A stretch of 64,000 nucleotides of DNA, taken from positions 287,557-351,556 of the forward strand of contig MFAS01000001.1 in NCBI GenBank assembly GCA_001774685.1. The letters are read 5' to 3'. The notes beneath the pieces were generated by a model. That model searched no databases. It saw only the letters and a program-made list of their open reading frames with translations, and was not told where the DNA came from. Within the stretch, counting starts at the first letter, position 1. Each line of letters begins with the position of its first letter. Positions 115-63,184 of this stretch are shown piece after piece. The position numbers were made by a program, and so were the translations under genes. The DNA is from Candidatus Collierbacteria bacterium RIFOXYD2_FULL_45_13. GTDB taxonomy: Bacteria; Patescibacteriota; Microgenomatia; UBA1400; MFAQ01.

Positions 115-135
115 TCTCGCAGTAACCCAATCAAA

Positions 136-212: not shown

Positions 213-222
213 TTGTCTGAAC

Positions 223-2058: not shown

Positions 2059-2070
2059 CAAGGCAACTGT

Positions 2071-4236: not shown

Positions 4237-4989
4237 ATGTTGTACAGCTATCGCAAGGCCACCCCGGATAATCCACATCCGGGCAGGCGCATACCTCGCT
4301 ATTTAAAAACCATTCCTACCTTGGTGTCTGCCTTGGGACTAGGGATACTCGCTGGCGTTGCCTATCCGGTCGTCAGTTATCAGTTCAAAGACATCAAACT
4401 TTTTAGCTCTTCTGATTCCGGCTTACTCTCCCCCGTTTATTATCAATCAAAGGCAGAAGACAACTCCTCTCCTGTTATCGTCAATGGTTTGGATTACACC
4501 AAAGCCAGTAGTTGGTTCCCGGGTAGTATTCAAAACGAATTTTTTTCTGCTCAAACGCCCGCCACAGACAACTCTCCGGATTCATATACTCTTTCTATTC
4601 CCTCACTCGGAATTATCAATGCACAAGTCGCCATTCGGGACGAAGATCTGACCAAACATTTAGTGCAGTACCCTCAGACAGCTCTTCCCGGTCAAATTGG
4701 CTCTCCGGTGATCTTTGGTCACTCTACACTGCCTCAGTTCTTTGATCCCCAAAAATACACCACGATCTTTTCAACGTTACCAAAAGTCAAAGTCGGCTCC
4801 GATGTTTTTATTACCTACGACGGTATCGAGTATACCTATCGTATTACCAAGACCTTTGAGGTCAAGCCCAATGAGTTGTGGGTTCTCCGACAGGACTACT
4901 CGGATAAAACCCTCAAGGTCATTACTTGTGTACCACCCGGCACCACCCTCCGGCGCCTGATTGTCGAAGGCACCCTCATCAACAACTAG
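4237..4989 (+). CDS. sortase family transpeptidase
   Basis: N-terminal TM anchor. Catalytic triad context: GHS..(His), LKVITCVPPGT (TLxTC Cys motif), RRL (Arg). Start abuts the previous stop. Confidence 0.75.
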   Translation: MLYSYRKATPDNPHPGRRIPRYLKTIPTLVSALGLGILAGVAYPVVSYQFKDIKLFSSSDSGLLSPVYYQSKAEDNSSPVIVNGLDYTKASSWFPGSIQNEFFSAQTPATDNSPDSYTLSIPSLGIINAQVAIRDEDLTKHLVQYPQTALPGQIGSPVIFGHSTLPQFFDPQKYTTIFSTLPKVKVGSDVFITYDGIEYTYRITKTFEVKPNELWVLRQDYSDKTLKVITCVPPGTTLRRLIVEGTLINN

Positions 4990-5005
4990 TCGATATAATC
5001 AAACA

Positions 5006-5398
5006 ATGCCCACAATTCTCTGTCTTGACCCAGGAACCGCTCACACCGGCATCGCTATCTCCGAAGAGGGGGTACTCGCCACACCTGTTACCACCATCTA
5101 CGAAAAGGATCTCGGTCAATTGGTTACCAAGATTTTGCCCTATCTCCGCAAATACAACCCAGATAGAATCGTCATCGGTGTTCCCGAATATGGGCCGATT
5201 GTGCAGTTCGCTACGGACCTTAGTGAAAAAATATATGCCAATTTTCCCAAACAAATTGTATTTTTTCGTGAAGACCTCAGCTCTCACGCCGCCAGACACG
5301 TCTTGAAGGCTCAGGGAAAAACGTTACTGAGACGTAAAAAAGAAGAGCATCAAACCGCCGCCGCCCTCATCCTCCAAGACCACCTCGACTCACTATAA
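5006..5398 (+). CDS. ruvX: Holliday junction resolvase-like YqgF/RuvX
   Basis: ILCLDPGTAHTGIAISE N-terminal RNase H-fold motif typical of YqgF. Start taken at the ATG at 5006, just after the sortase stop, rather than the upstream TTG used by the ORF track. Confidence 0.8.
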   Translation: MPTILCLDPGTAHTGIAISEEGVLATPVTTIYEKDLGQLVTKILPYLRKYNPDRIVIGVPEYGPIVQFATDLSEKIYANFPKQIVFFREDLSSHAARHVLKAQGKTLLRRKKEEHQTAAALILQDHLDSL

Positions 5399-5459
5399 CG
5401 CTTCTCTCATTCAGAGTATCGGGTCCGAAACCAACCGAAATACTTCAACCATACTGTTT

Positions 5460-5468
5460 TGATACAAT
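5460..5468 (+). promoter_or_regulatory. extended -10 promoter TGATACAAT, 6 nt upstream of ATG (leaderless configuration)
   Basis: TGnTAnAAT ending 6 nt before the ATG at 5475. No SD sequence. Confidence 0.4.
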
Positions 5469-5474
5469 CTATTT

Positions 5475-5681
5475 ATGTTCAAGAATATTATTGCTCCGGT
5501 ACAGGCTTGGCTTCTCTCACGAGGCGTTTGCGTCGGCTGTGGTACACCATTAACAGATGGTCAAAGTAAACCTTCCACCAAGGTTAAAGATTGCGACCAG
5601 GTTACCTGCAAGTGTGGCCGGGTTTTTGTTTATAATCCCAAGACCAACACCTATCGCCGTGCTCTCTTGAGCGAAATATAA
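5475..5681 (+). CDS. small zinc-ribbon protein (CxxC...CxC), hypothetical
   Basis: 68 aa with CVGCG...CKCG cysteine pairs. Compact spacing within the operon. Confidence 0.5.
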   Translation: MFKNIIAPVQAWLLSRGVCVGCGTPLTDGQSKPSTKVKDCDQVTCKCGRVFVYNPKTNTYRRALLSEI

Positions 5682-5686
5682 AGATT

Positions 5687-6673
5687 ATGTTTAAGCGATT
5701 TTTCACCGCTTTAACCATACTCGCCGTCTTGTTTTTTGCCTGGTATTTTCAGTCGATTCAGCCTGTTTCCCGCAGTACCGGCCCACTCATTGATTTTGAG
5801 GTTAAACCAGGTGCTGGGGTAGATAGAATCGCCAATGATCTAAGTAGTGCCAGACTAATCCGTTCCCGTGTCGGCTTCAAGATTACCGTTATCCGTTTAG
5901 GCATTGCCAACAAAATTCAGGCAGGTCTCTTCAAGCTTTCACCTTCTATGAGTGCGACAGAACTGGCGGAGGCTCTCACTCATGCATATGCCCGCCAAAT
6001 CCGAGTTACCATTCCCGAAGGTCTCAGAAGCGAGGAAATTAACTTACTTTTTGAAAAAGCTTTTAGTCAAGTTAAAGAGAACATATACAACCCGGCCGAG
6101 TTTACCCGTCAAACCAAGAACTTGGAAGGTTACCTCTTCCCCGACACTTATGATTTTGTCCCCGAAGCCACTGCCTCGGACATAGTCAAACGTCTCACCG
6201 GCCGTTTTAATGACGTTGTTAGTGACTTAAACATTTCCAAAGAAGACCTCCCACGCGCACTCATTCTGGCTTCCCTTCTGGAAAGAGAAGCTTTTTCTGC
6301 CCCCGAAATGCCCTTGGTGTCCGGAGTTATTGTAAAGCGTTTAAACATCGGCATGGCTTTACAGATAGATGCTACGGTTCAATACGCCGTTGGTTCTGCC
6401 CGATGTAAACAAATTGACTGTGACTGGTGGAAGAAAATTCTGACCAAGGACGATCTGAAACTAAGCTCTCCCTACAACACCTATCAGAACCCGGGTCTGC
6501 CCCCAACACCAATTTCCAATCCCGGTAAAGACGCCCTATCTGCCGCGGTCAAACCGGTCATTGGAACCGCATTGTATTACCTTCACGACTCCGATGGCAA
6601 AATTCACTTTGCCGACACCTTACCGCAGCACAATCAAAACATCTGCACCTATCTCAAAAAAGACTGTAGGTAA
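5687..6673 (+). CDS. mltG: endolytic murein transglycosylase MltG/YceG
   Basis: N-terminal TM, hallmark YLFPDTYDF motif, C-terminal YceG-like region. Confidence 0.85.
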   Translation: MFKRFFTALTILAVLFFAWYFQSIQPVSRSTGPLIDFEVKPGAGVDRIANDLSSARLIRSRVGFKITVIRLGIANKIQAGLFKLSPSMSATELAEALTHAYARQIRVTIPEGLRSEEINLLFEKAFSQVKENIYNPAEFTRQTKNLEGYLFPDTYDFVPEATASDIVKRLTGRFNDVVSDLNISKEDLPRALILASLLEREAFSAPEMPLVSGVIVKRLNIGMALQIDATVQYAVGSARCKQIDCDWWKKILTKDDLKLSSPYNTYQNPGLPPTPISNPGKDALSAAVKPVIGTALYYLHDSDGKIHFADTLPQHNQNICTYLKKDCR

Positions 6674-6678
6674 CAAAA

Positions 6679-6705
6679 AACCGGTGGCATTTCTGCACAC
6701 CGGTT
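6679..6705. terminator. bidirectional intrinsic terminator (aaccggtg/caccggtt stem); strong T-run on minus strand
   Basis: 8-bp perfect stem with a 9-nt loop. The minus-strand reading is followed by TTTTTTG. Sits between convergent mltG and the membrane-protein genes. Confidence 0.55.
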
Positions 6706-6710
6706 TACAT

Positions 6711-7034
6711 CTATTTCTCATCACGCATCCAAGATAACTTTCTTTTTTCCAGTTCTGCCCGAAAAGCCTCTTCGTTGAGGCGGATCGAGAGCAGGTCCCA
6801 TTTGAGTTCGTAGCGAACACGGGCAAGGAATTCAAGGTTCACTCCAAATCTTTCCGCAGTACGGTTCATCGCCCAGTATTCCACACCGAATCGCACGGCG
6901 ACCGTCAGAAACGCTAATCCAAAAGCCCAGGGTACCGCCCAGAAATTCCACAAATTAAAAACATGTATTACGACAGTCAGAAGAGTCATTCGTATCGCTA
7001 AAGATCGAATCGCTCCCAGCCAAAACCTTTTCAT
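6711..7034 (-). CDS. small membrane protein, hypothetical
   Basis: 107 aa, two predicted TM helices, AGGAGA RBS 6 nt upstream of ATG on the minus strand. Confidence 0.55.
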   Translation of the reverse strand: MKRFWLGAIRSLAIRMTLLTVVIHVFNLWNFWAVPWAFGLAFLTVAVRFGVEYWAMNRTAERFGVNLEFLARVRYELKWDLLSIRLNEEAFRAELEKRKLSWMRDEK

Positions 7035-7052
7035 TATTGTCTCCTGGTTGGT

Positions 7053-7418
7053 TTATAGCTTCTTCCTTGCACGGTAGTCATTTAGATCACGATAAAAAGA
7101 CTTCGTGTCCCACTCGATGGGCTTCTGGCGACTCTTATATTTGTGGACACAGACCATCTTCACGGCCTCAGTATACTCAATGGCATACAAATCCAACACT
7201 TGGTTGATTCGCACCCATGTGCCGACGAGCGTAGTTACAAATTTCAGCACACAAGCAAATCCTACCGCCGCCACAAATCCCAGCAAAAGTGAACTAAAAG
7301 CTATTCCCGTCAGGCTGTTCACCACCAACAATATTGGGACAACGCTGAAACTCAACAGCATGCATGTAGCCAGTAGCATGAAAGCATCATACAGAGCTAC
7401 CTTTACGATCTTTTTCAT
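7053..7418 (-). CDS. small membrane protein, hypothetical
   Basis: Start chosen at MKKIVKV, preceded by a GGAGGA RBS on the minus strand. Multiple hydrophobic helices. Confidence 0.55.
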   Translation of the reverse strand: MKKIVKVALYDAFMLLATCMLLSFSVVPILLVVNSLTGIAFSSLLLGFVAAVGFACVLKFVTTLVGTWVRINQVLDLYAIEYTEAVKMVCVHKYKSRQKPIEWDTKSFYRDLNDYRARKKL

Positions 7419-7521
7419 ATTTGGCACTCCTCCAGACAAAATGTGAACGTTCGTTTCTCGCCATATTATATACTATTATAAGATGATTGTCCACTATCTG
7501 ACCAAGTTCTCAATCTCCGTG

Positions 7522-7550
7522 TTGACAGCAAGCTAATTCAGCCCTATACT
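7522..7550 (+). promoter_or_regulatory. sigma70-type promoter TTGACA-17-TATACT upstream of rpoB
   Basis: Perfect -35 TTGACA, 17-nt spacer, -10 TATACT, about 95 nt upstream of the rpoB ATG. Confidence 0.5.
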
Positions 7551-7646
7551 ACACACACTGCTCTAAACTTGGCTGGGCTTTTTGCCAGTCAGGTTTTTGT
7601 ATGTTGTCCATTGTTATTTACTCCTGCCTAAATCCAAAAAATCCGG

Positions 7647-10600
7647 ATGATTAAACAAAAAAAACGCGAAAATTGGGGTAACATAGCCTCAAAGTTACCT
7701 GAGTCCAACTTGGCTCAAACCCAGCTAGACTCCTACAAACAATTTCTCGAAGAAGGCATCCGTGAATCATTACTCGAACTAAACCCCATCAAAGACTTTA
7801 CCGGTAAGGTCTTTGAGTTTGAATTTTTGAGCAACCGTGTTGGGCTTCCCAAGTTTTCTCCCAAGCAGTCGATTGAAAAAGGCGTCACTTTTGAGTCTCC
7901 TCTTTGGGCTACCGTCAAACTGACGAATCTCCACACCAAAGCCACTCAGCAGCAGGAAATCTTCCTTGGGGATATTCCCATGATGACTTCTATTGGTACC
8001 TTTATCATCAATGGCGTCGAGCGCGTTGTTGTTAACCAGCTGGTCCGTTCCCCCGGTGCCTATTTTACCCGCGAATTTGATCCTCATTCCGGCAGAGCAA
8101 TGCATCAGGCTGAGGTACGACCCATGCGCGGTTCATGGCTTGAATTTATTGTTTCTCGAAATGATTATATTTCGGTCCGCATTGATCGACACCGTAAAGT
8201 ATCCGCCACGACCCTTATTCGAGCTTTGGGATACTCAACCAACGAGGAAATCTTGGCACTTTTTGCCAATGTGGATACCGACAAAGAACATCGCTACATC
8301 GCCACCACCCTCTTAAAAGACAACAGCACGAATACCGAAGAAGCAATCCTTGACTTCTACCAGAAAGTCAGACCAGGAGAGCCAGCCGTTTTGGAAAATG
8401 CCAAAGCCCTTCTCCACCAAATGTTTTTTGATTCCCGCCGCTACAATCTTGGTTTGGTTGGTCGTTACAAGATGAACCGCAAATTGGGTATCAACACCCC
8501 TGTTGACAAGCAACACATTACTCTCAGTAATGACGACTTCATTGGTTCCATCAAGTATCTGATAGGTCTTCAGAATGGCCAAGGTAAGGTAGACGATATT
8601 GACCACTTGGCTAACCGACGTCTTCGCTGTGTCGGAGAGCTGGTGAACCAGACCTCCTTCAAGGCTGGGCTTTTAAGACTCGAACGCTCGATCAAAGAGA
8701 AGATGTCTCTTGCCAAGCCGGATGAGCTTCCCACCCCGGCTGCCTTTGTCAACCCTCGTCCCATCATCTCCGCTATCACGGAATTCTTCCGCCGAAACAG
8801 ACTTAGTTCTATCTTGGATCAAGTCAACCCTCTTTCCGAAGTGGACAACTTGAGACGTATTTCGGTCATGGGTCCGGGAGGTATCACCCGTGAAAGAGCT
8901 TCTTTCTCCATGCGTGATATTCACTCTTCTCAATACTCTCGTATATGTCCGGTCCGGTCTCCCGAAGGTCCAAACATTGGTCTCGTCACCTACTTGGCCC
9001 TTTACTCCCGTATAAATCCTTATGGTTTTCTCGAAGCTCCCTATCTCAAAGTCAGTAAGGTTGAAAAAGCCGGCAAAACTACCTTCAAAATTGGTGCAGA
9101 AGTTGTTTACTTAGCTGCCGATGATGAGGAGGATGCATATATTACACATGCTGGTATCGAACGTGAAGGCGACGTTATTATCCAAAAGTGGGTGCCTGTC
9201 CGATACGGAGGCAAATTCATTGAAGCAGACATTGATAAAGTTCAGTACATCGACGTGATTCCCAGACAAGTTGTAGGGACCTCCGCAGCCCTTATCCCAT
9301 TTGTCCAGCAAGATGAAGGAACTCGTGCCCTCATGGGTACACATCACCTCACCCAGGCACTTCCACTGGTGAAACCCACCGCCCCCATCGTAGGAACAGG
9401 TATGGAAGAAGTCACTGCCAAGGGTATGGGTTGGGTAGTTTCTTCTGCTTTCGATGGAGAGGTGCTTTCGGTAGACGGTAATCACATTAGTCTAAAGCTG
9501 TCAGTCAAAGACGCGGCCAAGGCCGTCACTGAAATATCCCCTTACGACTATGGCTTTGTCGAACTTCACAAAGACATCGTCACTTATAATCTCCGCAAAT
9601 ACCACAACTCTTCTCAGGACACTTGTTACAACCAACACCCACTAGTCGCCGTCGGGGACAATATAAAAAAAGGAGATGTCATCATTAACGGTCCCGCCTC
9701 CGAGAACGGCGAACTTGCTTTAGGTCAAAATCTTTTAATTGCCTATGCCGCCTTTGAGGGATTGGGTTATGAGGATGCCATTGTCGTCTCCGATCGTTGC
9801 GTCCGCGAAGACTTGTTGTCTTCCATCCACATTCACGAGCATACCTGCGATGTCATGGATACTAAGCTCGGTGCCGAGGAACTAACACGGGACATCCCCA
9901 ATGTTGCCGAAGTTGATCTTAAGAACCTTGGTCAAGATGGCGTCGTTGCCATCGGTTCCGTCGTAGGACCAAATGATATCTTGATCGGAAAAATTGCCCC
10001 TAAGGGTGAAACCGAATTAACCGCCGAAGAAAGACTTTTGAGAGCCATTTTTGGCGAAAAAGCTCGTGAAGTCCGCGACACCTCACTTCGTATGCCTCAT
10101 GGAGAGCAAGGCGTAGTCGTGTCTGTGAGAACCCTTAGTCGCGAAGAAGGCGATGAGCTGGATGCCGGAGTCATTACTCAAATAAAAATTAAAGTTGCTC
10201 AGCTTAGAAAAATCACTGTCGGCGATAAAGTTGCCGGTAGACATGGTAACAAGGGCGTCATCAGTAAAATTGTTTCAGATGCCGACATGCCTCATCTCGC
10301 TGACGGCCGTCCGGTAGACATCATCATTTCTCCTCTTTCTGTTCTGGCTCGTATGAACCTCGGACAGTTATTGGAAGCCCAACTGGCTTTTGCGGGTGAG
10401 CAGCTCGATAAAAGATTTTCTGTACCGGTCTTCGAAAAAGTTTCCGAATCTCAAATTACCGATGTGCTCAAAGAGGCCGGTTTACCGGTCACCGGTAAAT
10501 CACAGCTTTACGATGGGCGCACGGGTGAGCCTTTTGCTCAAGAAACTGCCGTGGGTGTCGGATACATTATCAAGCTCAACCACATGGTTGAGGACAAGAC

Positions 10601-11119: not shown

Positions 11120-14100
11120 ATGAATAATATTGTCGATTTCTCAGGTTTGCAGATCAGACTCGCTAGCCCCGAAGATATTCGTAGTTGGTCTTATGGTCTC
11201 GTCACCAAGCCGGAAACCATTAATTACCGAACCCAAAAACCTGAAAAGGACGGTCTTTTCTGCGAGCGCATTTTTGGACCTACTAAGGATTGGGAATGTT
11301 ACTGTGGCAAATACAAACGAGTCCGTTTCAAAGGTATTGTTTGTGATAAATGTGGCGTCGAAGTTACTCTAAGTCGTGTCCGCCGCGAGCGTATGGGTCA
11401 CATCGAGCTTTCCGCCCCGGTCGCCCACGTTTGGTTTTTCAAAGGGGCTCCCAGCAAACTCTCCCTTCTTCTGGATATCTCCCCTAAGGCTTTAACTTCA
11501 GTCATTTACTTTAGTAAGTTCCTTATCATGTCAACTAATGAAGAAGGACGAGAAGAAGCCTTGAAGAGTGTCGAAACCCAAAAAGAAGCCAAGCTCAATG
11601 AAGTTCGTTCCAATTTTGACAAGCAGATCGAAGACATAAAAACTCTGGGAGAAAAAGAAGTTTCCGAATTAAAAAAGAAAATTAAGGTTAAGGACGAATT
11701 AGAGCTCAAAACAGAAGACCTCAAGGTTCAATACAAACAAAAAGTGGCCTCGCTTCGTGAACAAATGGTGGTGGAGCTTACTTTTACCGAAGAAATTTAT
11801 AGCAAACTAGGTGCCTTGGTCGAAAGAATTCAAGCCAACTCTTTGGTTTCCGATTCTGAATTCGCCAAGCTCGAAGAATACCGGCTTGTTGATTGGCTTG
11901 AGGCTGGAATGGGCTCAGAAGCCCTTCTCGATGCTCTCAAAAAAGTAAATCTAGAAGAACTTGCCGCCAAACTCAAAGAAGATCTCAACAGTCCTTCAGA
12001 AGCCAAGAAGCTCAGGGCTACCAAACGACTTCAAGTAGTACGTGGTTTAGCCGACTCCAAAATCAAACCGGAATGGATGATTGTTCAGACTCTCCCGGTT
12101 ATTCCTCCTGACCTCCGTCCCATGGTTCAGCTTTCCGGTGGCCGCTTCGCTGCCTCGGACTTAAACGACCTCTATCGTCGAGTCATCAATCGCAACAACC
12201 GTCTTAAACATCTTATCGATCTTGGTGCTCCGGAGATTATTTTGAGAAACGAAAAACGCATGCTTCAGGAAGCCGTCGATTCTCTGATTGACTCCTCTCA
12301 AGCTAGATCCACTCGTCGATCGCGCACCGGCAAGACTCTCAAGTCCTTGTCCGACATGCTTCGTGGTAAACAGGGTCGCTTCCGTCAAAACCTTCTCGGT
12401 AAACGTGTTGACTACTCCGGCCGTAGCGTCATCGTTGTTGGACCAGAGCTTAAACTTAACCAGTGTGGTCTTCCGAAAGATATGGCTTTGGAAATGTTCA
12501 AGCCATTTGTTCTTCACGAGCTGATAAAACAAGACATGGCTCCAAACGTTAAGGCCGCCAAAGTCCTCATCGAAAAGAGACAGCCGGAAGTTTTTGATAT
12601 TCTCGAAAAAATTACCAAGAAGCACCCGGTCCTCCTAAACCGTGCTCCCACACTTCACAAGCTTTCGATTCAAGCCTTCTGGCCGGTTCTGGTTGATGGA
12701 GCCGCCATTCGTTTACACCCGGTAGTTTGTGGCGGTTTCAACGCTGACTTCGATGGAGACCAAATGGCCGTGCATGTACCCCTGACCAAAAAAGCCATTA
12801 TGGAAGCCAAGAAACACATGCTTCCTCAATTCAATCTTGTAAAACCCTCAGCCGGTAATCCGGTTTCCATTCCTGATTCCAAGGAAATGGCTATCGGTGT
12901 TTACTATCTTACTTCGATCGATACCAAACTGGCTCCCTATGCCACACCTTTCTCTTCTCCAACTGAGGCCATCACTGCCTATGAGACAGGTGTATTGAAT
13001 CCGCGCCAACCGATCAAGGTTCGCTTAGTCGCTGGAAAATCGGAACTTACGGAGACCACCGTTGGCCGCATCATTTTCAACCAAATTCTTCCAAAAGAGT
13101 GGGCCTTCATCAATCACAACCTCCCTCGAAAAGAAATCTCCTCAATGTTCCACCGTGCCATCAAAGAGCTAGATATCAAACGGGTGGTCAGGCTCATTGA
13201 CGGAGTTAAAAACATCGGTTTTGCTTACTCCACCATTTCTGGCCTCTCCTTTGCTATTTCCGATAACGAAATGTACTCCGAAAAAGACGCCGTCATTGAA
13301 GCTGGAAACCAGAAGGCGAAAGAAATTGAGGAAAACTACAACACTGGTCTAATCACCAACGAAGAAAGACGTAAACTCACCATTCAGATGTGGATGGATA
13401 CAGCCGACGATCTCGCCGAAAAAACCTGGCAAGAATTCTCCGAAGATAATCCGGTCCGCTTGATTATTGATACCGGTATGGGACGTATTACCAAAAATAC
13501 TATCAAACAGCTTTCCGCCATGCGTGGTATCAACGTGGATCCTCTGGGTAACATGGTGGAGTTACCTACCAAAGGCAACTTCCGTGAAGGTCTAAATATT
13601 TTTGAATACGTTACTTCAATTCGTGGATCCAGAAAGGGTTTGACTGATACCGCACTTCGTACCGCCGACGCCGGTTACCTAACCCGTCGACTGGTTGATG
13701 TCAGTCACGACGCTATCATCAGAGCCGAAGACTGTGGCACCGATGAATTCGTCACGATTTCTGTAGACGATAGCCGAGGCAAGATCTTCGAAAAACGCAT
13801 CAATTCCCGTTACGCCGCCAAGAAAGTAATCTCACCGGAAACACATAAGGCTTTGGTCGACGCCGGAGAAATGATTACCGAAGAAATTGCTTCCGGGATT
13901 ACGAGATCCGGTGTCAAAGAGGTTGAGGTTCGCTCTCCACTGACCTGCAAGATGCGTTTTGGTCTCTGTATTAAGTGTTACGGAAACAACTTAGCCAGTA
14001 ACTCAGCCGCTGTCATCGGAGATCCAGCCGGAGTTATCGCCGCCCAGTCTATTGGTGAACCTGGAACTCAGCTTACCATGCGTACCAAGCACTCCGGTGG

Positions 14101-29897: not shown

Positions 29898-30350
29898 ATG
29901 AAAACACTACTTTCCAACCTCCCCAAGCTTAGTAAAACTCCCAAGAAGCGGCTAGGTCGAGGTTTTGGCTCGGGCGTTGGTGGCCATACTGTCGGCCGTG
30001 GTCAAAAAGGCCAAAAGACCCGTGGCGTCATGCCTCTCTGGTTTGAAGGCGGACAGCTTCCGCTTATCCGACGCACCCCGTTTATCAAAGGCAAGCACCG
30101 CTTCCAGGTTATCAAACTTCAGCCTATTACCGTCAACTTTGACCGTTTAGACAAGTTTGAGACTAACTCGGTCATCGATCCGCTATTCCTCGCCACTGCT
30201 CTCAAAGTCAGTGAGAAAGAAGCCAAACGTGGCTTCAAGATCATTGCCACCGGTAAGCTCACCAAAGCCCTCCAGGTGGCCGTTCCGGCCTCCGCAGGTG
30301 CTATCAAAGCTATCGAGGCTGCCGGCGGCAAATACCTAGCCTCCAAATAA
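29898..30350 (+). CDS. rplO: 50S ribosomal protein L15 (follows S5 directly; no L30 gene)
   Basis: [27 protein letters not shown].. typical L15. No rpmD between rpsE and rplO. Confidence 0.92.
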
Positions 30351-30383
30351 GATCACCCCTTGGCAATGTCGTATTTCCTATAG

Positions 30384-30389
30384 TATAAT
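30384..30389 (+). promoter_or_regulatory. -10 hexamer TATAAT upstream of the first inserted gene
   Basis: TATAAT 38 nt upstream of the ATG. AAGGAG RBS present. Confidence 0.3.
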
Positions 30390-30427
30390 TCACGGGAACT
30401 TTCACATTTTTTTCCAAGGAGCTTTTC

Positions 30428-31141
30428 ATGAACATTACCGTAATCAGTTCTGGACCTCTTTCTGAAGAAACCAAAGCCTTGCTGGCTAAACTATATGAGA
30501 CCGTTGATCAAGTAATGGCTGTAGGTGAATACCGTATGGGATTTCGGACCGCCAAGATCCGGAATGGTATTCTCTACTGGCCGAAAGTCGAGGGAGGCTA
30601 TCTGGCCATCGACTCTCTGATCCGGAAAATGCACGATGCGGATACAAACCTGAAGCGTCTGGACGAAAACTTCTCTGTAGACCTCGACGACGTCGCCATC
30701 TTGGCTGAAGTTCTCGAGGAGTGTCTCAAACAGGCAGAGGGTGGTATGTTCAACCCCTCTCGGCGTCTCCAGCGCGCAGTTCAATCCATGCTCTATTCAT
30801 TCAAGAACTTATTCCCTGGAATGAAGTCGTACATGGGACAACCTCTGAACGAAGAGTTCGTTGTTTTAAGGGTCAGTTTTGACTACTACGCTCGTAAGGT
30901 CATCGCCGCGGGCGAGGAAGCCATGAAACTGGTCAACTCCAAGATCATCGACGGTCGGTTGTTCCTGAAAAGCGATGATGGATACTTGGTCGTTGACCCA
31001 GACAGCCAAGGTGGATCCTCACTGTTTCGATGCCCGGACCTCAATTTTGCGAACGCAAAAGCGGTTGGGGGCATTAGTTTTGCGAACGAACGGCAATACC
31101 GAGACATGTTTATTAGTTGGTTAAACGAAGCCGGGCTCTAA
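30428..31141 (+). CDS. hypothetical protein (237 aa) inserted between rplO and secY
   Basis: AAGGAG RBS, followed by a strong terminator. No recognisable motif. Confidence 0.6.
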   Translation: MNITVISSGPLSEETKALLAKLYETVDQVMAVGEYRMGFRTAKIRNGILYWPKVEGGYLAIDSLIRKMHDADTNLKRLDENFSVDLDDVAILAEVLEECLKQAEGGMFNPSRRLQRAVQSMLYSFKNLFPGMKSYMGQPLNEEFVVLRVSFDYYARKVIAAGEEAMKLVNSKIIDGRLFLKSDDGYLVVDPDSQGGSSLFRCPDLNFANAKAVGGISFANERQYRDMFISWLNEAGL

Positions 31142-31155
31142 AGAAAACTGATAGT

Positions 31156-31183
31156 AACCCATCTCGTCTGAGGTGGGTTTTTC
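31156..31183 (+). terminator. intrinsic terminator (cccatctc/gaggtggg + TTTTT)
   Basis: 8-bp stem including one GU pair, 4-nt loop, 5 T. Confidence 0.65.
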
Positions 31184-31198
31184 TTGACAATTATCCTA

Positions 31199-31204
31199 TA
31201 TAAT
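31199..31204 (+). promoter_or_regulatory. -10 hexamer TATAAT upstream of the membrane-protein gene
   Basis: TATAAT 47 nt upstream of the ATG at 31251. An adjacent TTGACA at 31185 has the wrong spacing (8 nt) and is not counted as a -35. Confidence 0.3.
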
Positions 31205-31250
31205 AGTACAATCCAGCTAGTTTGCATTCACTTTGACAAAGGAGTCTCAC

Positions 31251-31760
31251 ATGAGGAAATTTACCATCATCTGGTCGCTATCTTACTTGATCTTAGCTGC
31301 GGCAATGTTCGGGAGCAGCTTTCTAAGGCCTTGCGGTCCCATGACTGGCACAGGACTGTCCTGTGATTTTTCATACGGCATGAAAGCCACGATTGATATG
31401 CCTGCCGAAGTGTCGGTGGGTAGTTTCGCACCATTCACCGTGGCCTATTACTCGGATGGAGCGCTGGTTCCGATCGAAACCTTGAATCTTGGCGGTTTCT
31501 ACTATGTCGTTTTCAACACCACTGGAGCAACTGAGTTATATATGGTCAAAGCCGCCGGTGGTATTCGCTCTCCTACCATCGGAGTCGATGCACTTACAGA
31601 TTATCCGACCCTGCATGTTGTTCGTACCTGGCGGAATGTCCCACTTCAGGTGTGGAAATGGTATCTCTCTCCGGTCTTTTTCCTATGCACCATTATGTCT
31701 ATTTTGCTGCTGATGGCGGCTAGAAGCAGTTTGAAAAACAACCAAAACCACGCCGGCTAA
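31251..31760 (+). CDS. hypothetical secreted/membrane protein (signal-anchor plus C-terminal TM)
   Basis: Start at the ATG at 31251, preceded by AAGGAG. N-terminal hydrophobic segment and a C-terminal TM helix. Confidence 0.55.
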   Translation: MRKFTIIWSLSYLILAAAMFGSSFLRPCGPMTGTGLSCDFSYGMKATIDMPAEVSVGSFAPFTVAYYSDGALVPIETLNLGGFYYVVFNTTGATELYMVKAAGGIRSPTIGVDALTDYPTLHVVRTWRNVPLQVWKWYLSPVFFLCTIMSILLLMAARSSLKNNQNHAG

Positions 31761-31789
31761 ACTTCTCAGCAACCCTCAAAGGAGGTCGT

Positions 31790-32206
31790 ATGTTAAATAT
31801 GCTTGCATTCCTTGGCGTATCAAAGCCGGGAGACATTAAGCTACAAGTTCGTTCTGGAATGATGAACGGTGCCATCAGATTTTTTCGGGAAATAAGGTGG
31901 TTTGAAGTTACCGATCGTAAAGTTAACCAGCCTTGGGGCCAGACCAGATATTTCACTCCGGCCCTGAATAGTTTGGTTGTGGGTTTGTTCGAATCGTCCC
32001 ATGATCCAGACGGATTGACAATGACTCAGAGCCAGCTACCCCTTCATTTTGAGGATGTCGCCCCAGAAGTTGCTGCACGAGCGATCCTCGCGTGGGCCGA
32101 CTACGCGGAAGCTGGTGAGGGAGCTGCCATAGTATCGTACGATGAAGGCGCCCGGTGGCTAGTTTATCTGCCGGCCATCTTCACCTTCGCCATCGAGATC
32201 GTCTGA
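31790..32206 (+). CDS. hypothetical protein (138 aa)
   Basis: AAGGAGG RBS. No recognisable motif. Confidence 0.55.
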   Translation: MLNMLAFLGVSKPGDIKLQVRSGMMNGAIRFFREIRWFEVTDRKVNQPWGQTRYFTPALNSLVVGLFESSHDPDGLTMTQSQLPLHFEDVAPEVAARAILAWADYAEAGEGAAIVSYDEGARWLVYLPAIFTFAIEIV

Positions 32207-32225
32207 TCACCAACGGTATGTGTAC

Positions 32226-32251
32226 ACCACCCTTCATAGGGTGGTTTTTTT
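32226..32251 (+). terminator. intrinsic terminator (accaccc/gggtggt + TTTTTTT)
   Basis: 7-bp stem, 6-nt loop, 7 T. Confidence 0.65.
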
Positions 32252-32318
32252 ATTTGATTTACATTACCTCCAATTCAACCTGTGAATCATCGAACGAATC
32301 TGCTAGGATAAAAATATT

Positions 32319-33086
32319 ATGCCATTCAAATCATGGAACGAAATGACGGATGGACAAGAAGGTGAGTCACCTTTTTCACCAACCGGACCAACAGGGGATA
32401 TTCCTCGAACAGCAGAATCATCAGACTTGTTAACAAAGGCTGGTACGGGAGAAACATTAGATCCCGTTGCAGCAGAAAAGGCTCGCAAAAAATATCGAGC
32501 GCAGTCCAGTCAGGATATTGGCCGACTTCAGGCGAACTCCGTTTCGAGTGACATGGGTTTTGGCAACCCGGGTGAAGCCGACACCGATGAGGAAGCTCCA
32601 GAAGATTATTCTGAGGAAATTTCTCATGACGGCTATCAAGTTATTCGACCGGCCAATGCAGGTCAAGTTGAAAAACAACTCCAGACCAAACTTAAAAAAA
32701 GTTATACCGAATCAACCGATCCCCAAGATATAGAAGGTGAGAAGGATAACTGGATCGGTGACTCACCCACACTTACCGAAGCAGATCTACCTCATTTCAA
32801 TGCTAATGAACACAATCGTGAACCAAAAGGAGATAATAGTCGAATCGATATGGGTCGCTACGATGCAAGGATGCCATCTCCTAACCTAGAATCATCTGCG
32901 TCGGATTTGGAGAAAGAAAATCAAGACCGCAAACTCTGGCGCGATCCATTAGTGCCGGAGTTGATGGATGAACCAGGATTCCCAGAAGAAATTGCCAAAG
33001 AAGAGCTCAGGTTAGCTAGAAAAAAGGGGTACGTAACCGAAGCACGGGAAGAAGAGATTAAAAAACGGGCGAGGGAAGGTCGATAA
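32319..33086 (+). CDS. hypothetical acidic low-complexity protein (255 aa, D/E/P/S-rich, probably disordered)
   Basis: No hydrophobic core or known motif. Basic C-terminal tail (KKRAREGR). Confidence 0.5.
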   Translation: MPFKSWNEMTDGQEGESPFSPTGPTGDIPRTAESSDLLTKAGTGETLDPVAAEKARKKYRAQSSQDIGRLQANSVSSDMGFGNPGEADTDEEAPEDYSEEISHDGYQVIRPANAGQVEKQLQTKLKKSYTESTDPQDIEGEKDNWIGDSPTLTEADLPHFNANEHNREPKGDNSRIDMGRYDARMPSPNLESSASDLEKENQDRKLWRDPLVPELMDEPGFPEEIAKEELRLARKKGYVTEAREEEIKKRAREGR

Positions 33087-33130
33087 TCACTTCTAATTCT
33101 TGTCTTAGCTGATAGAATAGAGCTCACGGT

Positions 33131-34411
33131 ATGAATAATATATTAGCTCCTCTGCGCGCTCTGTTCAAAATCAAAGATCTTCGCAATCGTCTTATTTTTA
33201 CAGCTGTCGTTATCGCCATCTTCCGTCTAGTAGCCCACATTCCCACACCGGGCATCAATTTGGCCGCACTTAAAGGGCTCTTCGACTCATCGGCCTTTCT
33301 TTCTTTGCTGGATGTTTTTTCCGGTGGCACTCTAACGAATTTCTCTGTCATGGCACTCGGCTTGAATCCTTACATCAATGCCTCCATCATCATGCAGATG
33401 ATGGGTATGGTTGTTCCCAGTCTGGAAGCTCTTCAGAAGGAAGGGGATTACGGCCGCCAAAAAATCAATCAGTACACACGTTTACTTACAATTCCCCTAA
33501 GTTTTCTCCAGGGTATCGCTCTAATATTTCTTCTTCGAGGGCAAGGTCTCACCACCACTGCCGATCCGCTTAAGCTCGCCTCGATTGTTTTCACCCTTGC
33601 TGCTGGCACGGCTTTCCTTATTTGGCTCGGTGAACAGCTTAATGATTATGGTTTGGGCAACGGCATTAGTTTAATTATCTTTGTGGGTATCGTTACCCGG
33701 CTTCCAGTCGCCGCTGCTCAGGTACTCACCACCATTGATCCTTCTCAAATATTCACCTACTTGATATTCGGTTTCTTTGCCGTTGCTTCCGTTTACGCAA
33801 TTGTCAGAGTCGGAGAAGCTGTTCGTGAAGTTCCTATTCAGTCGGCTAGACGCGGGGCTTCCTTCACTTCCGCTGTTGGTAACCATCTGCCTCTTCGTCT
33901 TAACCAGGCTGGCGTCATCCCGATCATTTTTGCCGTTTCGTTTATGCTGATTCCCAATTTGCTTAGTCGTGTTTTTGCCAGCTCTAGCCAGCCACTCCTC
34001 TCCCAAATCTCCCGAAGCATGAGTCTCTATCTTGCCCCTAATACTGTTGTTTATAACGTCCTTTATTTTGCCCTAGTTGTCGCCTTCTGTTATTTCTATA
34101 CCGCGGTTGTCTTCAATCCGGAAAAAATTGCCAAAGATCTCCGCTCCTCAGGCTCTTTCATCCCCGGTATTCGGCCCGGTCCCAACACCGTTGATTATCT
34201 GAACTTTGTTTTAAACAGAATTACCTTAGTCGGCGCCTCGTTCTTAGGTCTAGTCGCCATTTTCCCCTCCATTATCTCCGGAGTTACCGGCATCACCTCC
34301 ATCGCCATCGGTGGTACCGGCATTCTCATCGTTGTCTCGGTAGTTTTGGAAATCCTCAAGACAGTCAACTCCCAGCTCTACATGTACAGTTACGACAAAT
34401 TCCTCGACTAA
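33131..34411 (+). CDS. secY: preprotein translocase subunit SecY
   Basis: 10-TM profile. N-terminal LRNRLIFTAVVIAIFRLVAHIPTPGIN typical SecY. Confidence 0.93.
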   Translation: MNNILAPLRALFKIKDLRNRLIFTAVVIAIFRLVAHIPTPGINLAALKGLFDSSAFLSLLDVFSGGTLTNFSVMALGLNPYINASIIMQMMGMVVPSLEALQKEGDYGRQKINQYTRLLTIPLSFLQGIALIFLLRGQGLTTTADPLKLASIVFTLAAGTAFLIWLGEQLNDYGLGNGISLIIFVGIVTRLPVAAAQVLTTIDPSQIFTYLIFGFFAVASVYAIVRVGEAVREVPIQSARRGASFTSAVGNHLPLRLNQAGVIPIIFAVSFMLIPNLLSRVFASSSQPLLSQISRSMSLYLAPNTVVYNVLYFALVVAFCYFYTAVVFNPEKIAKDLRSSGSFIPGIRPGPNTVDYLNFVLNRITLVGASFLGLVAIFPSIISGVTGITSIAIGGTGILIVVSVVLEILKTVNSQLYMYSYDKFLD

Positions 34412-34994: not shown

Positions 34995-35255
34995 TCATCT
35001 TCTGCGTCTTAGCCACCACCCCTTAAAGAATGGCAGAGTCAAAGTCGATAGGAGAAAACCGATTGCCGGTATAATCGCATTCAGCCACGGATTACTCACC
35101 TTTATTGCCCACATGTACAACCCGACACTTAGATAAGTAAACGTTGCCAGCAATAGTTTCCGCAAGCCACTTGTCTCCCAAGCCTTATCTCCCTCCACTT
35201 TCTTGTTTCTTGATTCAATTTTCAAAACTCTTTTTTCCAATTCAGAAACCTTCAT
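34995..35255 (-). CDS. small membrane protein, hypothetical (86 aa)
   Basis: N-terminal charged coiled segment then two hydrophobic helices. Convergent with adk. Confidence 0.4.
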   Translation of the reverse strand: MKVSELEKRVLKIESRNKKVEGDKAWETSGLRKLLLATFTYLSVGLYMWAIKVSNPWLNAIIPAIGFLLSTLTLPFFKGWWLRRRR

Positions 35256-35331: not shown

Positions 35332-36066
35332 ATGACCAAACTACAAGCCATGACCGAAGGTGGTAAGAGACTCGGGCACATCAAAGGCCTGTTGGCTGGC
35401 ATGGTCAAAGAGGGCGTTACTCCTCTGGAAATTGATACAGAAGCAGAAAAACTGATCAAGGAGGGAGGCGACAAGCCGAACTTCAAAATGGAACCCGGTT
35501 ACCGCCACTCCACCTGTATCAACGTTAACCAAGGTATTGTCCACGGCATACCTGGCAACACTCCTTTCAAAGCGGGCGACGTGGTCAAAATTGATATGGG
35601 ACTTCTTCACGAAGGCTATCACTTGGATACTTCTATCACCGTTGCCATACCTCCAATTTCTCCACATGTAGCCAAATTTTTAGAGGTCTGTCAAAGTTCG
35701 CTCGACGCCGCTATTTTCGAGGCGATTCCCGGACACACAGTCTACGATATTGGGCTAGCAATGCAAACCGTGGTGGAAACCGCGGGGTACAACGTCATCC
35801 GGGATCTCACCGGGCATGGAATAGGCAGGAAGCTCCATATGGAACCATACATTCCTTGCTTTGCCGACACCAAAAGCAAAAAGTTTGTCCTTTCAGTCGA
35901 CCAGACGGTTGCTATCGAGGCCATGGTGGCTATGGGTGACTGGCATCTGGTCGAGGATCCGGATGGCTGGACTCTTTCGACCCAGGACGGATCCACTACA
36001 GCCATGATCGAGGAAACTGTCTATATAACCGCCGACGGCCCCAAAATCCTCACAGGCCTCAACTAA
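35332..36066 (+). CDS. map: methionine aminopeptidase type I
   Basis: Pita-bread fold metal ligands context (DVVKIDMG.., HGIG, EPxI). 244 aa. Confidence 0.9.
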   Translation: MTKLQAMTEGGKRLGHIKGLLAGMVKEGVTPLEIDTEAEKLIKEGGDKPNFKMEPGYRHSTCINVNQGIVHGIPGNTPFKAGDVVKIDMGLLHEGYHLDTSITVAIPPISPHVAKFLEVCQSSLDAAIFEAIPGHTVYDIGLAMQTVVETAGYNVIRDLTGHGIGRKLHMEPYIPCFADTKSKKFVLSVDQTVAIEAMVAMGDWHLVEDPDGWTLSTQDGSTTAMIEETVYITADGPKILTGLN

Positions 36067-36426: not shown

Positions 36427-36834
36427 ATGTCCGGTAATTATATTATTCTTCATGCCGCCGATACTTCGGGAAAAGCAGACGAACTTCAGATGGATCTCCT
36501 GTTCGAAGGATTTGCCACCATCACCATCTCGGAGGTCCTTCTCCAGGGTCCTTTAAACATCCCCGAGCTGATCGAATCAGAGCTTGGTGTGATCATCGTT
36601 CTTAGCGATGATCTTTTGAAAGATATCGTCTGTCTCACCATGGCCAAGCAAGCCATGAGAGTTCAAAAGGGCACCGTTATTGTGTTTGACAAGATCTCCG
36701 CTCCAGAGTGGGCTGGGCAACCTTTCAAGTTAGTCCCTGGAGTTCTCTATGAGGTTGATTGGGAGTTTTTCCTGACCAAGCTACGCTCTGTTGAGCGCAT
36801 TTCTCGCCTTGGTGAAGAAGACATCCCAGAATAA
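36427..36834 (+). CDS. hypothetical protein (135 aa) inserted between map and infA
   Basis: Strong RBS, own promoter and terminator. No confident domain call. Confidence 0.55.
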
Positions 36835-55097: not shown

Positions 55098-55125
55098 TAA
55101 AACCGAGAGTCTTTCGACCATTTAG

Positions 55126-55196
55126 TCGGGGTACTCAGAATTGAACTGAGATCGCGCGCACCCCATGCGCGCATACTGCCGTTATACTATACCCCG
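55126..55196 (-). tRNA. tRNA-Pro (anticodon GGG), 71 nt, no encoded CCA
   Basis: Minus-strand fold: acceptor CGGGGTA/TACCCCG (7/7 WC), D-arm GTAT/GTAT (2 WC + 2 GU) with GG in the loop, anticodon stem CGCGC/GCGCG with loop AUGGGGU (U33, GGG, G37), variable CGAT, T-arm CTCAG-TTCAATT-CTGAG, discriminator A. Confidence 0.6.
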
Positions 55197-60185: not shown

Positions 60186-60270
60186 GTCATTACGAATCTC
60201 CTGCCCGCAGATGCTAGAGCATCTGCTCTTGCAGGCGGGCGTACTCGAGCTGTGGCAATCTCACTCCATC
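60186..60270 (+). repeat. repeat element R copy 1 (intergenic, 85 bp): GTCATTACGA...20-bp perfect palindrome...GGCAATCTCACTCCATC
   Basis: Termini shared with copies at 60383-60445 and 60918-60964. Inner palindrome gcagatgct-ag-agcatctgc at 60207-60226. Confidence 0.55.
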
Positions 60271-60293
60271 CATAATATAAAATTACGATACGA

Positions 60294-61316
60294 ATGAATA
60301 ATGTTTTAGTCATCTGCGGTCCCACCACCTCCGGTAAAACCTCCCTAGCTCTCTCCATCGCAAAGCAAATAATCTCGAACCAGTCATTGCGAGGAGCGAA
60401 GCGACGTGGCCCGCTGGTACCCGAAGGGGTAAATCTCACTCCACCAGGATCAGTCAACCTCCTCTCCGCCGACTCCCGACAGATATACAAGGGTCTGGAC
60501 ATTGTTACAGGCAAAGATATTCCTACAGATCTCCCTCCAAACATTTGTTTTTTTGGTTTGGATTTGGTCGAGCCCAACCAAAGCTTTAATCTCGCTGACT
60601 ACTTGGATTATTCCAAAAAAATAATTCAAAGCTCGATAAAAAGCCATACTCCGCTGATTATTGTGGGCGGTACTGGTTTATACCTGAAAGCCATTACTAC
60701 TGATTTGCTGACTGTCAGAGTTCCTCCAAATAGATTACTTCGTCTGGATCTCGAGAAACTTGATTTACCGGCTCTTCAGTCTCGTCTATCAATATTAAAT
60801 CCTCAAAAATTCTCCTCCCTGAATAATTCTGATCTCAATAATCCCAGACGTCTCATCCGCGCCATCGAAATCTCAACCTACGACAATTCACAATCTGCCG
60901 CTTTCTCTTCCTCCAACGTCATTGCGAGTTTCGGTACTCCGAACCGCGGCAATCTCACTCCATCAAACTTTCTTTGGGTTGGCCTTAAAGTCGATAAAGA
61001 AATTCAGAAATCCCGGATCAATCATAGAGTCATTGATAGATTAGAAAACGGAGCGGTGGAAGAAGTAAAAAACTTAATTGCAAAATACCCCGACCTCCAC
61101 TTGCCAATCTACACCAGTCTAGGCGTCAAACAGATTCTTCAATTCCTGCACCAAGAAATCCCTCGAGAAACGCTGGTAGACCTATGGGCGGCTTCCGAAG
61201 TAGATTATGCTCGTCGGCAAACGGTCTGGTTTAAAAAACAACCCGGCATAGTTTGGTATGATAAAAGTACGGTAGACGACCATCTTATCGCTAAGTTAGC
61301 CGAAATATATAAATAA
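60294..61316 (+). CDS. miaA: tRNA dimethylallyltransferase (340 aa) carrying two in-frame insertions derived from repeat element R
   Basis: P-loop GPTTSGKT, SADSRQIY, typical MiaA. Extra segments ..SLRGAKRRGPLVPEGVNLTPPGSV.. and ..VIASFGTPNRGNLTPS.. coincide with repeat copies. Confidence 0.85.
   Translation: MNNVLVICGPTTSGKTSLALSIAKQIISNQSLRGAKRRGPLVPEGVNLTPPGSVNLLSADSRQIYKGLDIVTGKDIPTDLPPNICFFGLDLVEPNQSFNLADYLDYSKKIIQSSIKSHTPLIIVGGTGLYLKAITTDLLTVRVPPNRLLRLDLEKLDLPALQSRLSILNPQKFSSLNNSDLNNPRRLIRAIEISTYDNSQSAAFSSSNVIASFGTPNRGNLTPSNFLWVGLKVDKEIQKSRINHRVIDRLENGAVEEVKNLIAKYPDLHLPIYTSLGVKQILQFLHQEIPRETLVDLWAASEVDYARRQTVWFKKQPGIVWYDKSTVDDHLIAKLAEIYK
60383..60445 (+). repeat. repeat element R copy 2 (63 bp, in-frame inside miaA)
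   Basis: GTCATTGCGAG...GGTAAATCTCACTCCACC. Corresponds to a roughly 20-aa insertion after the MiaA P-loop helix. Confidence 0.55.
60918..60964 (+). repeat. repeat element R copy 3 (47 bp, inside miaA)
   Basis: GTCATTGCGAG-ttcggtactccgaa-ccgcGGCAATCTCACTCCATC. The 17-mer GGCAATCTCACTCCATC is identical to copy 1. Confidence 0.55.
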
Positions 61317-62857: not shown

Positions 62858-63169
62858 ATGATATATTCATATATTATGGAACAGCAAGAAAAAACTTACG
62901 CTGAGCGGATTACTGCAATTTACGAAAAAGTTAAAAACAGCCTCGGTGAAGAAAGGGCTAAATTATTTAATGAAGTAGTTAGAGGTGCCAGCTTATTAGA
63001 TGAAGATAAGAACTTATTAACCCAAATAGATAGTTTAGACATGGGTGGATTAGATATTGAGGTAAGCAAGCTTGAAGAAATTGTGGAAGGCATGAAAAGG
63101 CAGTATGAAGCTAGTAGTATTTACGAAGCCTTTGCGCCGCGAGCCCTTGCGGGCTCCCTAGTACAATAA
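62858..63169 (+). CDS. hypothetical protein (about 100 aa) in an AT-rich segment
   Basis: Charged helical composition. Start uncertain (alternative ATG at 62876). Weak. Confidence 0.35.
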   Translation: MIYSYIMEQQEKTYAERITAIYEKVKNSLGEERAKLFNEVVRGASLLDEDKNLLTQIDSLDMGGLDIEVSKLEEIVEGMKRQYEASSIYEAFAPRALAGSLVQ

Positions 63170-63184
63170 GCCGGATTCTGTCGT

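Follow-up and report, generated by a model that had tools for sequence, protein, structure and literature searches.

The expanded rplO-secY junction of Candidatus Collierbacteria probably holds a clade-wide, locally evolving array of gene cassettes

Few gene junctions in bacteria are as conserved as that of rplO and secY, which serves as a synteny anchor. The canonical spc operon of Escherichia coli has the order rplN...rpsE-rpmD-rplO-secY (Cerretti et al. 1983 as cited in PMC9297842), and chromosomal hotspots of gene turnover have been described that lack mobile-element genes and diversify by recombination at conserved flanks (Oliveira, Touchon & Rocha 2017, PMC5635113). Such mobile-element-free hotspots are the closest described concept to the locus analyzed here, which is the rplO-secY junction in a 64,000-nucleotide stretch (the window) of contig MFAS01000001.1 from Candidatus Collierbacteria bacterium RIFOXYD2_FULL_45_13. 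At this junction, rplO and secY are separated by 2783 bp that hold four open reading frames (ORF1 to ORF4), two predicted terminators and several promoter-like elements. The source is an uncultured groundwater bacterium that is placed in the Microgenomates-group lineage of the candidate phyla radiation (CPR). We consider it probable, at roughly 0.7, that a cassette array evolves locally within a spc operon that is split throughout the clade, and that the four genes represent one present state of this array. A literature search found no paper on an expansion of the rplO-secY junction.

The comparison that carries this reading was made across relatives. A SecY scan of the genome collection yielded 80 species-level loci, and the gaps were then measured by local tblastn. 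Loci with a SecY at least 62% identical to that of the window were taken as the Collierbacteria clade, and those with a SecY at most 53% identical were taken as outgroup CPR. The rplO-secY gap has a median of 2128 bp in the clade (range 555-6321, n = 28, all loci with both genes) versus a median of 2 bp in the outgroup (n = 24), where 23 of the 24 gaps measure at most 177 bp and the outlier, L060, measures 6.1 kb. Because the split in gap size between clade and outgroup is clean, the expansion is a trait of the clade and not an event in the window genome. In all 28 clade loci that have both genes, rplO and secY bound the variable region. The seven junctions from rplX to rplO have medians of 1-22 bp in the clade and 0-23 bp in the outgroup. 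The map-infA junction has a median of 672 bp in the clade (range 60-3257), and few outgroup loci were measured there.

In the window, the break in rplO-secY adjacency that a preliminary description of this stretch had reported was confirmed, in that secY does not immediately follow rplO. The four ORFs were recovered in the ORF table, and the identities of L15 and SecY were confirmed by Pfam. Promoters and terminators were predicted in a 12-kb scan, with promoter matches scored out of 12. The features of the junction, including Shine-Dalgarno (SD) sequences, are as follows.

29898-30350, + strand: rplO (L15), 150 aa, the upstream core gene at the junction edge; Pfam Ribosomal_L27A, E 9.5e-10
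30360-30389, + strand: P1, predicted sigma-70-like promoter, TTGGCA-18-TATAAT, 11/12, directly after the rplO stop and upstream of ORF1
30428-31141, + strand: ORF1, 237 aa, acidic, soluble; SD AAGGAG
31156-31183, + strand: T1, predicted intrinsic terminator, hairpin at 31156-31179 with a 10-bp stem and a U-run, ending the ORF1 unit
31184-31212, + strand: P2, predicted promoter, TTGACA-17-TACAAT, 11/12, abutting T1 and upstream of ORF2-ORF3
31251-31760, + strand: ORF2, 169 aa from ATG, or 175 aa (31233-31760) with a TTG start
31790-32206, + strand: ORF3, 138 aa, acidic, soluble; SD AAGGAGG
32226-32251, + strand: T2, predicted terminator, ACCACCC-TTCATA-GGGTGGT followed by T7, hairpin at 32226-32245
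32300-32309, + strand: extended -10-like element of ORF4, cTGcTAGGAT (TGCTAGGAT), 9 nt before the ATG, with no SD
32319-33086, + strand: ORF4, 255 aa, acidic, highly hydrophilic, with no SD
33110-33118, + strand: predicted extended -10 of secY, TGATAGAAT, 12 nt before the ATG, with no SD
33131-34411, + strand: secY, 426 aa, the downstream core gene at the junction edge; Pfam SecY, E 1.9e-99

The content of the junction was compared by calling ORFs in every gap and clustering them, which placed ORF1, ORF2, ORF3 and ORF4 in families F1, F6, F11 and F4, respectively. The gaps hold 1-10 ORFs per species, which form 17 multi-member families and many singletons. The ORF1 family is the only window family, beside other genes, in L009, L011 and L003, where it accompanies an M28-like protein. 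L005 holds F1 and F11 with others, L035 has the ORF2 family without that of ORF1, and the ORF3 family occurs without that of ORF2 in L005, L007 and L014. The ORF4 family occurs without the other three in L018, L020 and L021, and many species hold none of the four. Even the closest core-gene relatives, L007, L009 and L011 (SecY 92-96% and S5 98-99% identical), have gene sets that differ from that of the window. The comparison of relatives that the preliminary description had suggested thus found the site to be expanded throughout the clade and the four genes not to be kept as a set: no relative set with known functions emerged, the site is vertically maintained and its orphan content turns over rapidly.

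Few occupants of the gaps could be named by Pfam, namely DUF2284 and Peptidase_M28 proteins, and a DUF2284 protein is the sole occupant of the junction in L023, L032 and L033. An IS200-like transposase (L026), a Rieske protein, an RnfD-like protein and a methyltransferase (L035) and a glyoxalase (L037) were found at one locus each. Paralogue pairs within single islands were observed for families F1, F5, F7, F9 and F13.

Because the four window families occur independently, they do not form one four-gene system. This bears on the proposal of the preliminary description that the four genes arrived together as one autonomous module and constitute a novel envelope-associated system. Such a module would account for the presence of dedicated promoters and terminators, for the membrane protein encoded by ORF2, for the ORF1-ORF2-ORF3 order that is common to the window and L006, and for the failure of known families to fit. 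We nevertheless find it quite unlikely, since relatives carry the families in independent combinations, the genes of the window fall by prediction into three separate transcription units, and three of the four proteins have no membrane or secretion signal. Moreover, no clade member examined has an empty junction, and the gap is expanded in 28/28 clade loci, so a one-off insertion does not fit.

The families are also faithful to the site. An ORF1 profile searched against 1.84e9 representative proteins matched only 18 at E<=1e-3, and wherever the context could be read, the gene is placed between rplO and secY or directly before secY, with the exception of P0022. P0022 (L089 1939-3593) is the weakest match of the family and lies near secE, beside a Y1_Tnp gene and a 404-aa gene that form an IS200/IS605-type pair. 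All four members of the ORF2 family are at the junction, and all six members of the ORF4 family are immediately upstream of secY. The ORF3 homologues in L005, L006, L007, L014 and L090-L093 are all located between rplO and secY, and these include all four additional loci from the metagenome scan. For ORF2, the metagenome scan found nothing. Word-indexed protein searches with ORF2 and ORF3 returned only the queries themselves, which reflects a limit of the index. An exact copy of the ORF1 protein is on record from Candidatus Collierbacteria RIFOXYB2_FULL_46_14 (MFAP01000001.1) and also from GCA_001002605.1.

To our reading, the site fidelity of these families also bears on a mobile origin of the island, as the remnant of a prophage, an integrative island or a cassette mobilized by an insertion sequence (IS), or as a hotspot fed mainly from outside the clade. 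Signs of mobility do exist among relatives. The junction of L026 contains an IS200-like Y1 transposase (6602-7249; PF01797, E 6.5e-26), which is the only mobile-element exception; the distant ORF1-family member P0022 adjoins Y1_Tnp elsewhere; palindromes resembling repetitive extragenic palindromes (REP) follow rplO in L003, L018, L019, L023, L037 and L038; and ordinary genes (glyoxalase, methyltransferase, Rieske protein) have been captured in some relatives. In the window, however, Pfam detected no integrase or transposase in the island or its flanks, direct or inverted flanking repeats and attachment-like (att-like) sites were limited to chance-level matches, and tRNA and Rfam scans found nothing in the island and no adjacent tRNA. 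Likewise, no integrase was present among the relatives' junction proteins scanned with Pfam. ORF1-ORF4 had no match in PHROGs, and the families of ORF1, ORF2 and ORF3 had no relatives among 2.9 M viral contigs. The GC content of the island equals that of its flanks and only the strand skews differ. GC content like that of the flanks, together with families essentially confined to the clade and the site, favors a local origin, and we regard the mobile-element explanation as unlikely. These same observations speak against the earlier picture of an autonomous module dropped into the operon.

With respect to the skews, GC skew is ∼0 in the island (30250-32250), whereas the ribosomal genes and secY on either side have values of -0.1 to -0.24, and AT skew flips. 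This change probably reflects amino-acid and codon usage that differs between highly expressed core genes and accessory genes. Palindromes of the REP/Rickettsia palindromic element (RPE)-like family found after rplO in the six relatives are also present elsewhere in the window. One copy, GTCATT(G/A)CGA...hairpin...GGCAATCTCACTCCAYC, is located at 60186-60275, upstream of a miaA-like ORF (60294-61316), and two further copies (60383-∼60450 and 60918-∼60965) appear in frame inside that ORF.

Evolutionary rates were estimated between the window and its core-gene sister L007, for which the synonymous divergence (dS) of the flanks is about 0.8-0.9. The nonsynonymous divergence (dN) is 0.46 for ORF1 (dN/dS 0.19), 0.34 for ORF3 (dN/dS 0.18) and 0.38 for ORF4 (dN/dS 0.07), versus 0.016 for rplO (dN/dS 0.019) and 0.028 for secY (dN/dS 0.034). 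The dN of the island genes is therefore 12-29x that of rplO and secY; constraint acts on the island genes too, but it is 12-29 times weaker than on their neighbors. Positive selection was considered and is unsupported, as dN/dS is <1 (with dS saturated). The identity of rplO is 91-97% to closer Collierbacteria relatives and falls to 57% in the most distant. ORF1 is 50% identical to its counterpart in L007 versus 63-66% to those of the more distant L006 and L003. This discordance with the core genes fits either allele exchange or differential retention of old paralogues.

The presence of junction homologues in other species and a dN/dS below 1 where it could be estimated indicate that ORF1-ORF4 are genes and not chance ORFs. 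The lack of known domains and the very narrow distribution are what one would expect if the ORFs were non-functional, having either arisen by chance in a long spacer or begun to decay there as pseudogenes. That explanation is highly improbable given full-length homologues across species with 36-66% amino-acid identity and conserved motifs, strong SD sequences before three of the four genes, dN/dS of 0.07-0.19, a confident model of the ORF1 domain, and an ORF2 family that retains its two-transmembrane (two-TM) layout and Cys pair.

The arrangement of predicted expression signals provides further support for an array. The total of promoter-like sites in the 12-kb scan is not above that in shuffled sequence; the two best sites, both 11/12, precede ORF1 and ORF2. 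T1 and T2 are the two best terminators of the scan and follow ORF1 and ORF3. T1 folds with -17.1 kcal/mol (z -3.7), and T2 folds with -13.9 kcal/mol (z -1.7), as well as which 13/200 shuffles fold, so T2 alone is not distinguishable from shuffles. The proposal that the island has promoters and terminators of its own holds for two promoter matches and two hairpins with T-runs at the places it named, with the reservation that the z of T2 is only -1.7. The -10 and leader start of P1 are conserved in L006, and the P2 spacer (CCTATAT.AT.GTA) resembles, by eye, the post-rplO promoters of L009, L010 and L011. Based on these signals, the window is predicted to contain three transcription units, P1-ORF1-T1, P2-ORF2-ORF3-T2 and a leaderless-type ORF4, which are followed by secY with a promoter of its own.

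Similar signals recur at the junction in relatives, where a terminator, a strong promoter or both follow rplO in most cases, whichever gene comes next. Across 102 junction genes, a promoter match of at least 9/12 lies within 130 nt upstream in 40%, versus 6% of control segments, and a hairpin with a T-run lies 3' of the gene in 39%, versus 2% of control segments. The hairpin motif of T2, (A/C)CCACC(C/T)..GGGTGG(G/T)T4+, occurs 22x within the gaps of the clade and 0x in 454 kb of flanks; T2 itself is its single occurrence in the 64-kb window.

ORF4 and secY differ from the other genes in their start signals. In the ORF4 family, CTG(C/T)TA(A/G)(T/G)AT is found 8-9 nt before the ATG in 5/6 genes, and the element in L012 is looser (TAGATAT). 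For secY, an extended -10-type element located 7-13 nt before the ATG, with no SD, is present in 34/34 clade loci with readable sequence. It reads TGnTA(G/A)AAT in nearly all of them and is looser in L018 and L037. A -10 element this near to the ATG, with no SD, predicts that the ORF4 and secY mRNAs are leaderless or near-leaderless. The earlier statement that each gene has a strong ribosome-binding site is thus correct for three of the four genes and fails for ORF4.

The shared and unusual promoter-to-ATG arrangement of ORF4 and secY could also be expected if the genes encode accessory factors that serve the ribosome or the Sec translocon in this lineage only, with ORF4 and the ORF1 family as the main candidates. 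That the ORF1 and ORF4 families are strictly tied to the junction points in the same direction, as does the composition of these ribosomes, since uL30 is absent from CPR ribosomes and bS21 is often absent in Collierbacteria (PMC9297842). Consistent with the former, no L30 gene (rpmD) is present between rpsE and rplO in the window. We hold this explanation to be improbable because the presence of the families varies among close relatives and many species are without all four, their dN exceeds that of rplO and secY 12-29-fold, the proteins are acidic, unlike ribosomal proteins, and their own promoters and terminators would decouple the genes from the stoichiometry of the operon.

The four proteins themselves were characterized by profile, structure and sequence comparisons. 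Pfam, NCBIfam, PADLOC and PHROGs gave no significant match for any of ORF1-ORF4, in agreement with the earlier remark that no motif is recognized, and the PADLOC-DB 2.0 models of defence systems gave 0 families at E<=1 for all four. In ORF1, a ∼110-aa domain occurs twice in tandem (about 30428-30757 and 30758-31141); a profile of the N-domain matched the C-half with an hhalign probability of 99.4% (E 3e-21; 97.6% in another comparison), and relatives with one, two and three domains exist. A full-length AlphaFold model was unusable, with a predicted local distance difference test (pLDDT) score of 49, and a single-domain model based on 20 domain sequences was used instead (pLDDT 80.8, predicted template-modeling score 0.69). 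The modeled domain has the layout helix, four-strand beta-meander, helix. Foldseek searches of this model against PDB and BFVD gave no match at E<1e-3; the top match, frataxin, was rejected at a TM-score (TM) of 0.24. Searched against PDB sequences, a profile of the domain matched nothing but YWTD-blade fragments and a designed helical protein; these were rejected as compositional or local. The structure and profile searches suggested in the preliminary description thus produced a domain model with no fold match and assigned no protein to a housekeeping family.

ORF2 most likely starts at ATG 31251 behind AAGGAG, in agreement with the call of other pipelines (P0006). Hydropathy analysis located hydrophobic segments at the N and C termini, with basic residues at both termini, and the predicted topology is N-in/C-in with the loop outside. 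The initial view of a 175-aa signal-anchored protein is therefore upheld for the membrane location and revised to a likely 169 aa with two hydrophobic segments, not one. An alignment with L006, L035 and L038, to which ORF2 is 36-41% identical, showed that two Cys residues of the ∼110-aa loop domain are invariant and that the loop also carries an RTW motif; the two-TM layout is kept. No membrane or secretion signal was detected in ORF1, ORF3 or ORF4, so membrane features are confined to ORF2; with independent assortment and three predicted units, this argues against the suggestion that the four genes together form an envelope system.

ORF3 has a conserved, hydrophobic C-terminal motif, W(L/F)VYLPA(I/L)FTF.IEIV, in the alignment. 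In a PDB sequence search, ORF3 matched only the CglIIR protein 6f1s_A, which was rejected, as its E of 0.047 did not reach inclusion. ORF4 has an isoelectric point (pI) of 4.65 and a grand average of hydropathy (GRAVY) of -1.23; this acidity and hydrophilicity fit the description of ORF4 as acidic and disordered. The termini are conserved in the ORF4 family, and the central block of longer relatives is missing in the window protein. PDB sequence searches with ORF2 and ORF4 gave no match. A single superfamily for many of the junction families was also considered; hhalign support was weak (F12 68%, F13 63%, F9 23%), and no such claim is made. With low confidence, we suggest that the four proteins are dispensable accessory proteins and not a single machine, that ORF2 may be an exposed membrane protein, and that ORF1, ORF3 and ORF4 would most plausibly be acidic cytoplasmic binding or protective factors tied to a symbiotic lifestyle.

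A possible history of the cassette array can be proposed from these observations. The spc operon would have been split at rplO|secY in the ancestor of the Collierbacteria clade, and secY would have acquired a separate extended -10 promoter that lies only 7-13 nt ahead of its start codon. With such a promoter, the spacer would be able to hold extra genes without disturbing the expression of ribosomal proteins or SecY. The comparison of relatives shows that the spacer has since undergone birth-and-death turnover, through local duplication, fast divergence and loss. Species probably also exchanged island alleles, with recombination taking place in the very conserved flanks. Ordinary genes have been captured occasionally, among them those for an M28-like peptidase, DUF2284, a methyltransferase, a glyoxalase, a Rieske protein and one IS200 transposase.

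Several points weigh against this account. The ancestral split of the operon is inferred from present-day loci and is not reconstructed on a tree, and local birth may not be fully separable from acquisition from unsampled donors. The wider distribution of ORF2 and ORF3 rests on fetched loci, because the word-indexed searches returned only the queries. The dS of the island is saturated, so its dN/dS values are rough, and the dS of the flanking genes is heterogeneous too. The promoters, terminators and leaderless starts are all predicted from sequence, and the control for hairpin enrichment consisted mostly of operon DNA, which is tightly packed and has few terminators in any case. Since the loci derive from metagenome-assembled genomes, misassembly is possible at one locus, though not across 28 independent assemblies.

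A more specific version of the cassette-array reading, which we consider possible but doubtful, is that the junction is a dedicated diversity locus of Collierbacteria, integron-like without an integrase. The resident promoter after rplO and the recurrent terminator-promoter modules would express a fast-diversifying, clade-specific repertoire of the ORF1-ORF4 types for interactions with hosts, phages or competitors. Alleles would be swapped via the flanks, and the leaderless promoter would keep secY independent.

An expansion was also observed outside of the clade. L060, a non-Collierbacteria member of Patescibacteria with a SecY 47% identical to that of the window, has its own 6.1-kb rplO-secY expansion (1900-8006). 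Four of the proteins encoded in this gap are paralogues that share an N-terminal anchor and an NWKTYRN motif. The gap also encodes a small secreted protein rich in Cys and a protein of 465 aa in which LytM/M23-like histidine motifs were recognized by eye. Its separate expansion implies that the junction opened independently at least once more.

Downstream of secY, the map-infA junction of the window encodes a 135-aa acidic protein (36427-36834, + strand) that belongs to a clade-specific paralogous family. It is 27-55% identical to g132 and g143 of L003 and has no Pfam, NCBIfam, PADLOC or PHROGs match. The 3' part of map contains a ∼100-bp indel between the two public assemblies L001 and L002 (locus 11370-11469; window ∼35797-35896). 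The gene map is called as 190 aa in GCA_001002605.1 versus 244 aa in the window; the island is identical in both assemblies. Between adk and map, 34995-35255 (- strand) encodes a basic protein of 86 aa (pI 10.6) that has a hydrophobic segment at its C terminus. The NCBI record L001 lists this gene, and the only family match of its product is a weak one in PHROGs, of unknown function (E 0.003). The sole structured RNAs detected in the window are a class A RNase P RNA at 63151-63459 (- strand, 129.9 bits) and tRNA-Pro(GGG) at 55125-55196 (- strand).

A whole candidate phylum has broken the rplO-secY adjacency and, if the cassette-array reading is correct, the break is now a persistent, fast-evolving cassette array. 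The junction is a tractable site for studying the origin, duplication and turnover of new protein families in tiny CPR genomes. It contributes several protein families without known relatives, including the ORF1 domain with its confident model and no fold match, and it offers in secY a testable case of a predicted leaderless mRNA for an essential gene. For binning and annotation pipelines, a contiguous ribosomal block should not be assumed at rplO-secY in Collierbacteria.

Compared with the canonical spc operon, the window keeps the order rplX-rplE-rpsZ-rpsH-rplF-rplR-rpsE-rplO...secY-adk-map-infA, with tight spacing upstream of rplO. It differs in the absence of rpmD, which is usual in CPR, in a gap that spans 0.5-6.3 kb across the clade and in the promoter-like element of secY. 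A second comparison is with the polyimmunity loci of polymorphic-toxin systems, which were reportedly recognized by Zhang, Iyer, Aravind and colleagues as tandem arrays of small immunity or inhibitor genes. These are said to share with the rplO-secY array small, often acidic, fast-evolving proteins, tandem duplicates and mixes of families that vary between strains. The rplO-secY array differs in that it has no adjacent toxin gene and no known immunity domain; Pfam and NCBIfam found no SUKH, Imm or other known immunity domain, and no toxin-like gene lies between rplO and secY.

Integrons resemble the junction in having a tandem, one-orientation array of small, mostly orphan genes, for which the promoter after rplO would be the resident promoter and the recurrent hairpins would separate the cassettes. 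In contrast to integrons, no intI was found in the window island or the Pfam-scanned junction proteins, and many cassettes have a promoter of their own. The hairpins between cassettes are also not attC sites, as they are short GC stems with T-runs, which is the architecture of intrinsic terminators.

The likeness to mobile-element-free chromosomal hotspots is closer. The same two core genes bound accessory gain and loss in all genomes, with no integrases, and turnover in the rplO-secY gap is high compared with the medians of 1-22 bp at the junctions upstream of rplO. Double homologous recombination could use the very conserved flanks as its arms, and ORF1 is discordant with the core genes. The rplO-secY array differs from these hotspots in that it lies inside the most conserved bacterial operon and is kept across a whole candidate phylum, not within one species, and in that most of its families appear confined to the site, which points to local duplication and divergence rather than imports.

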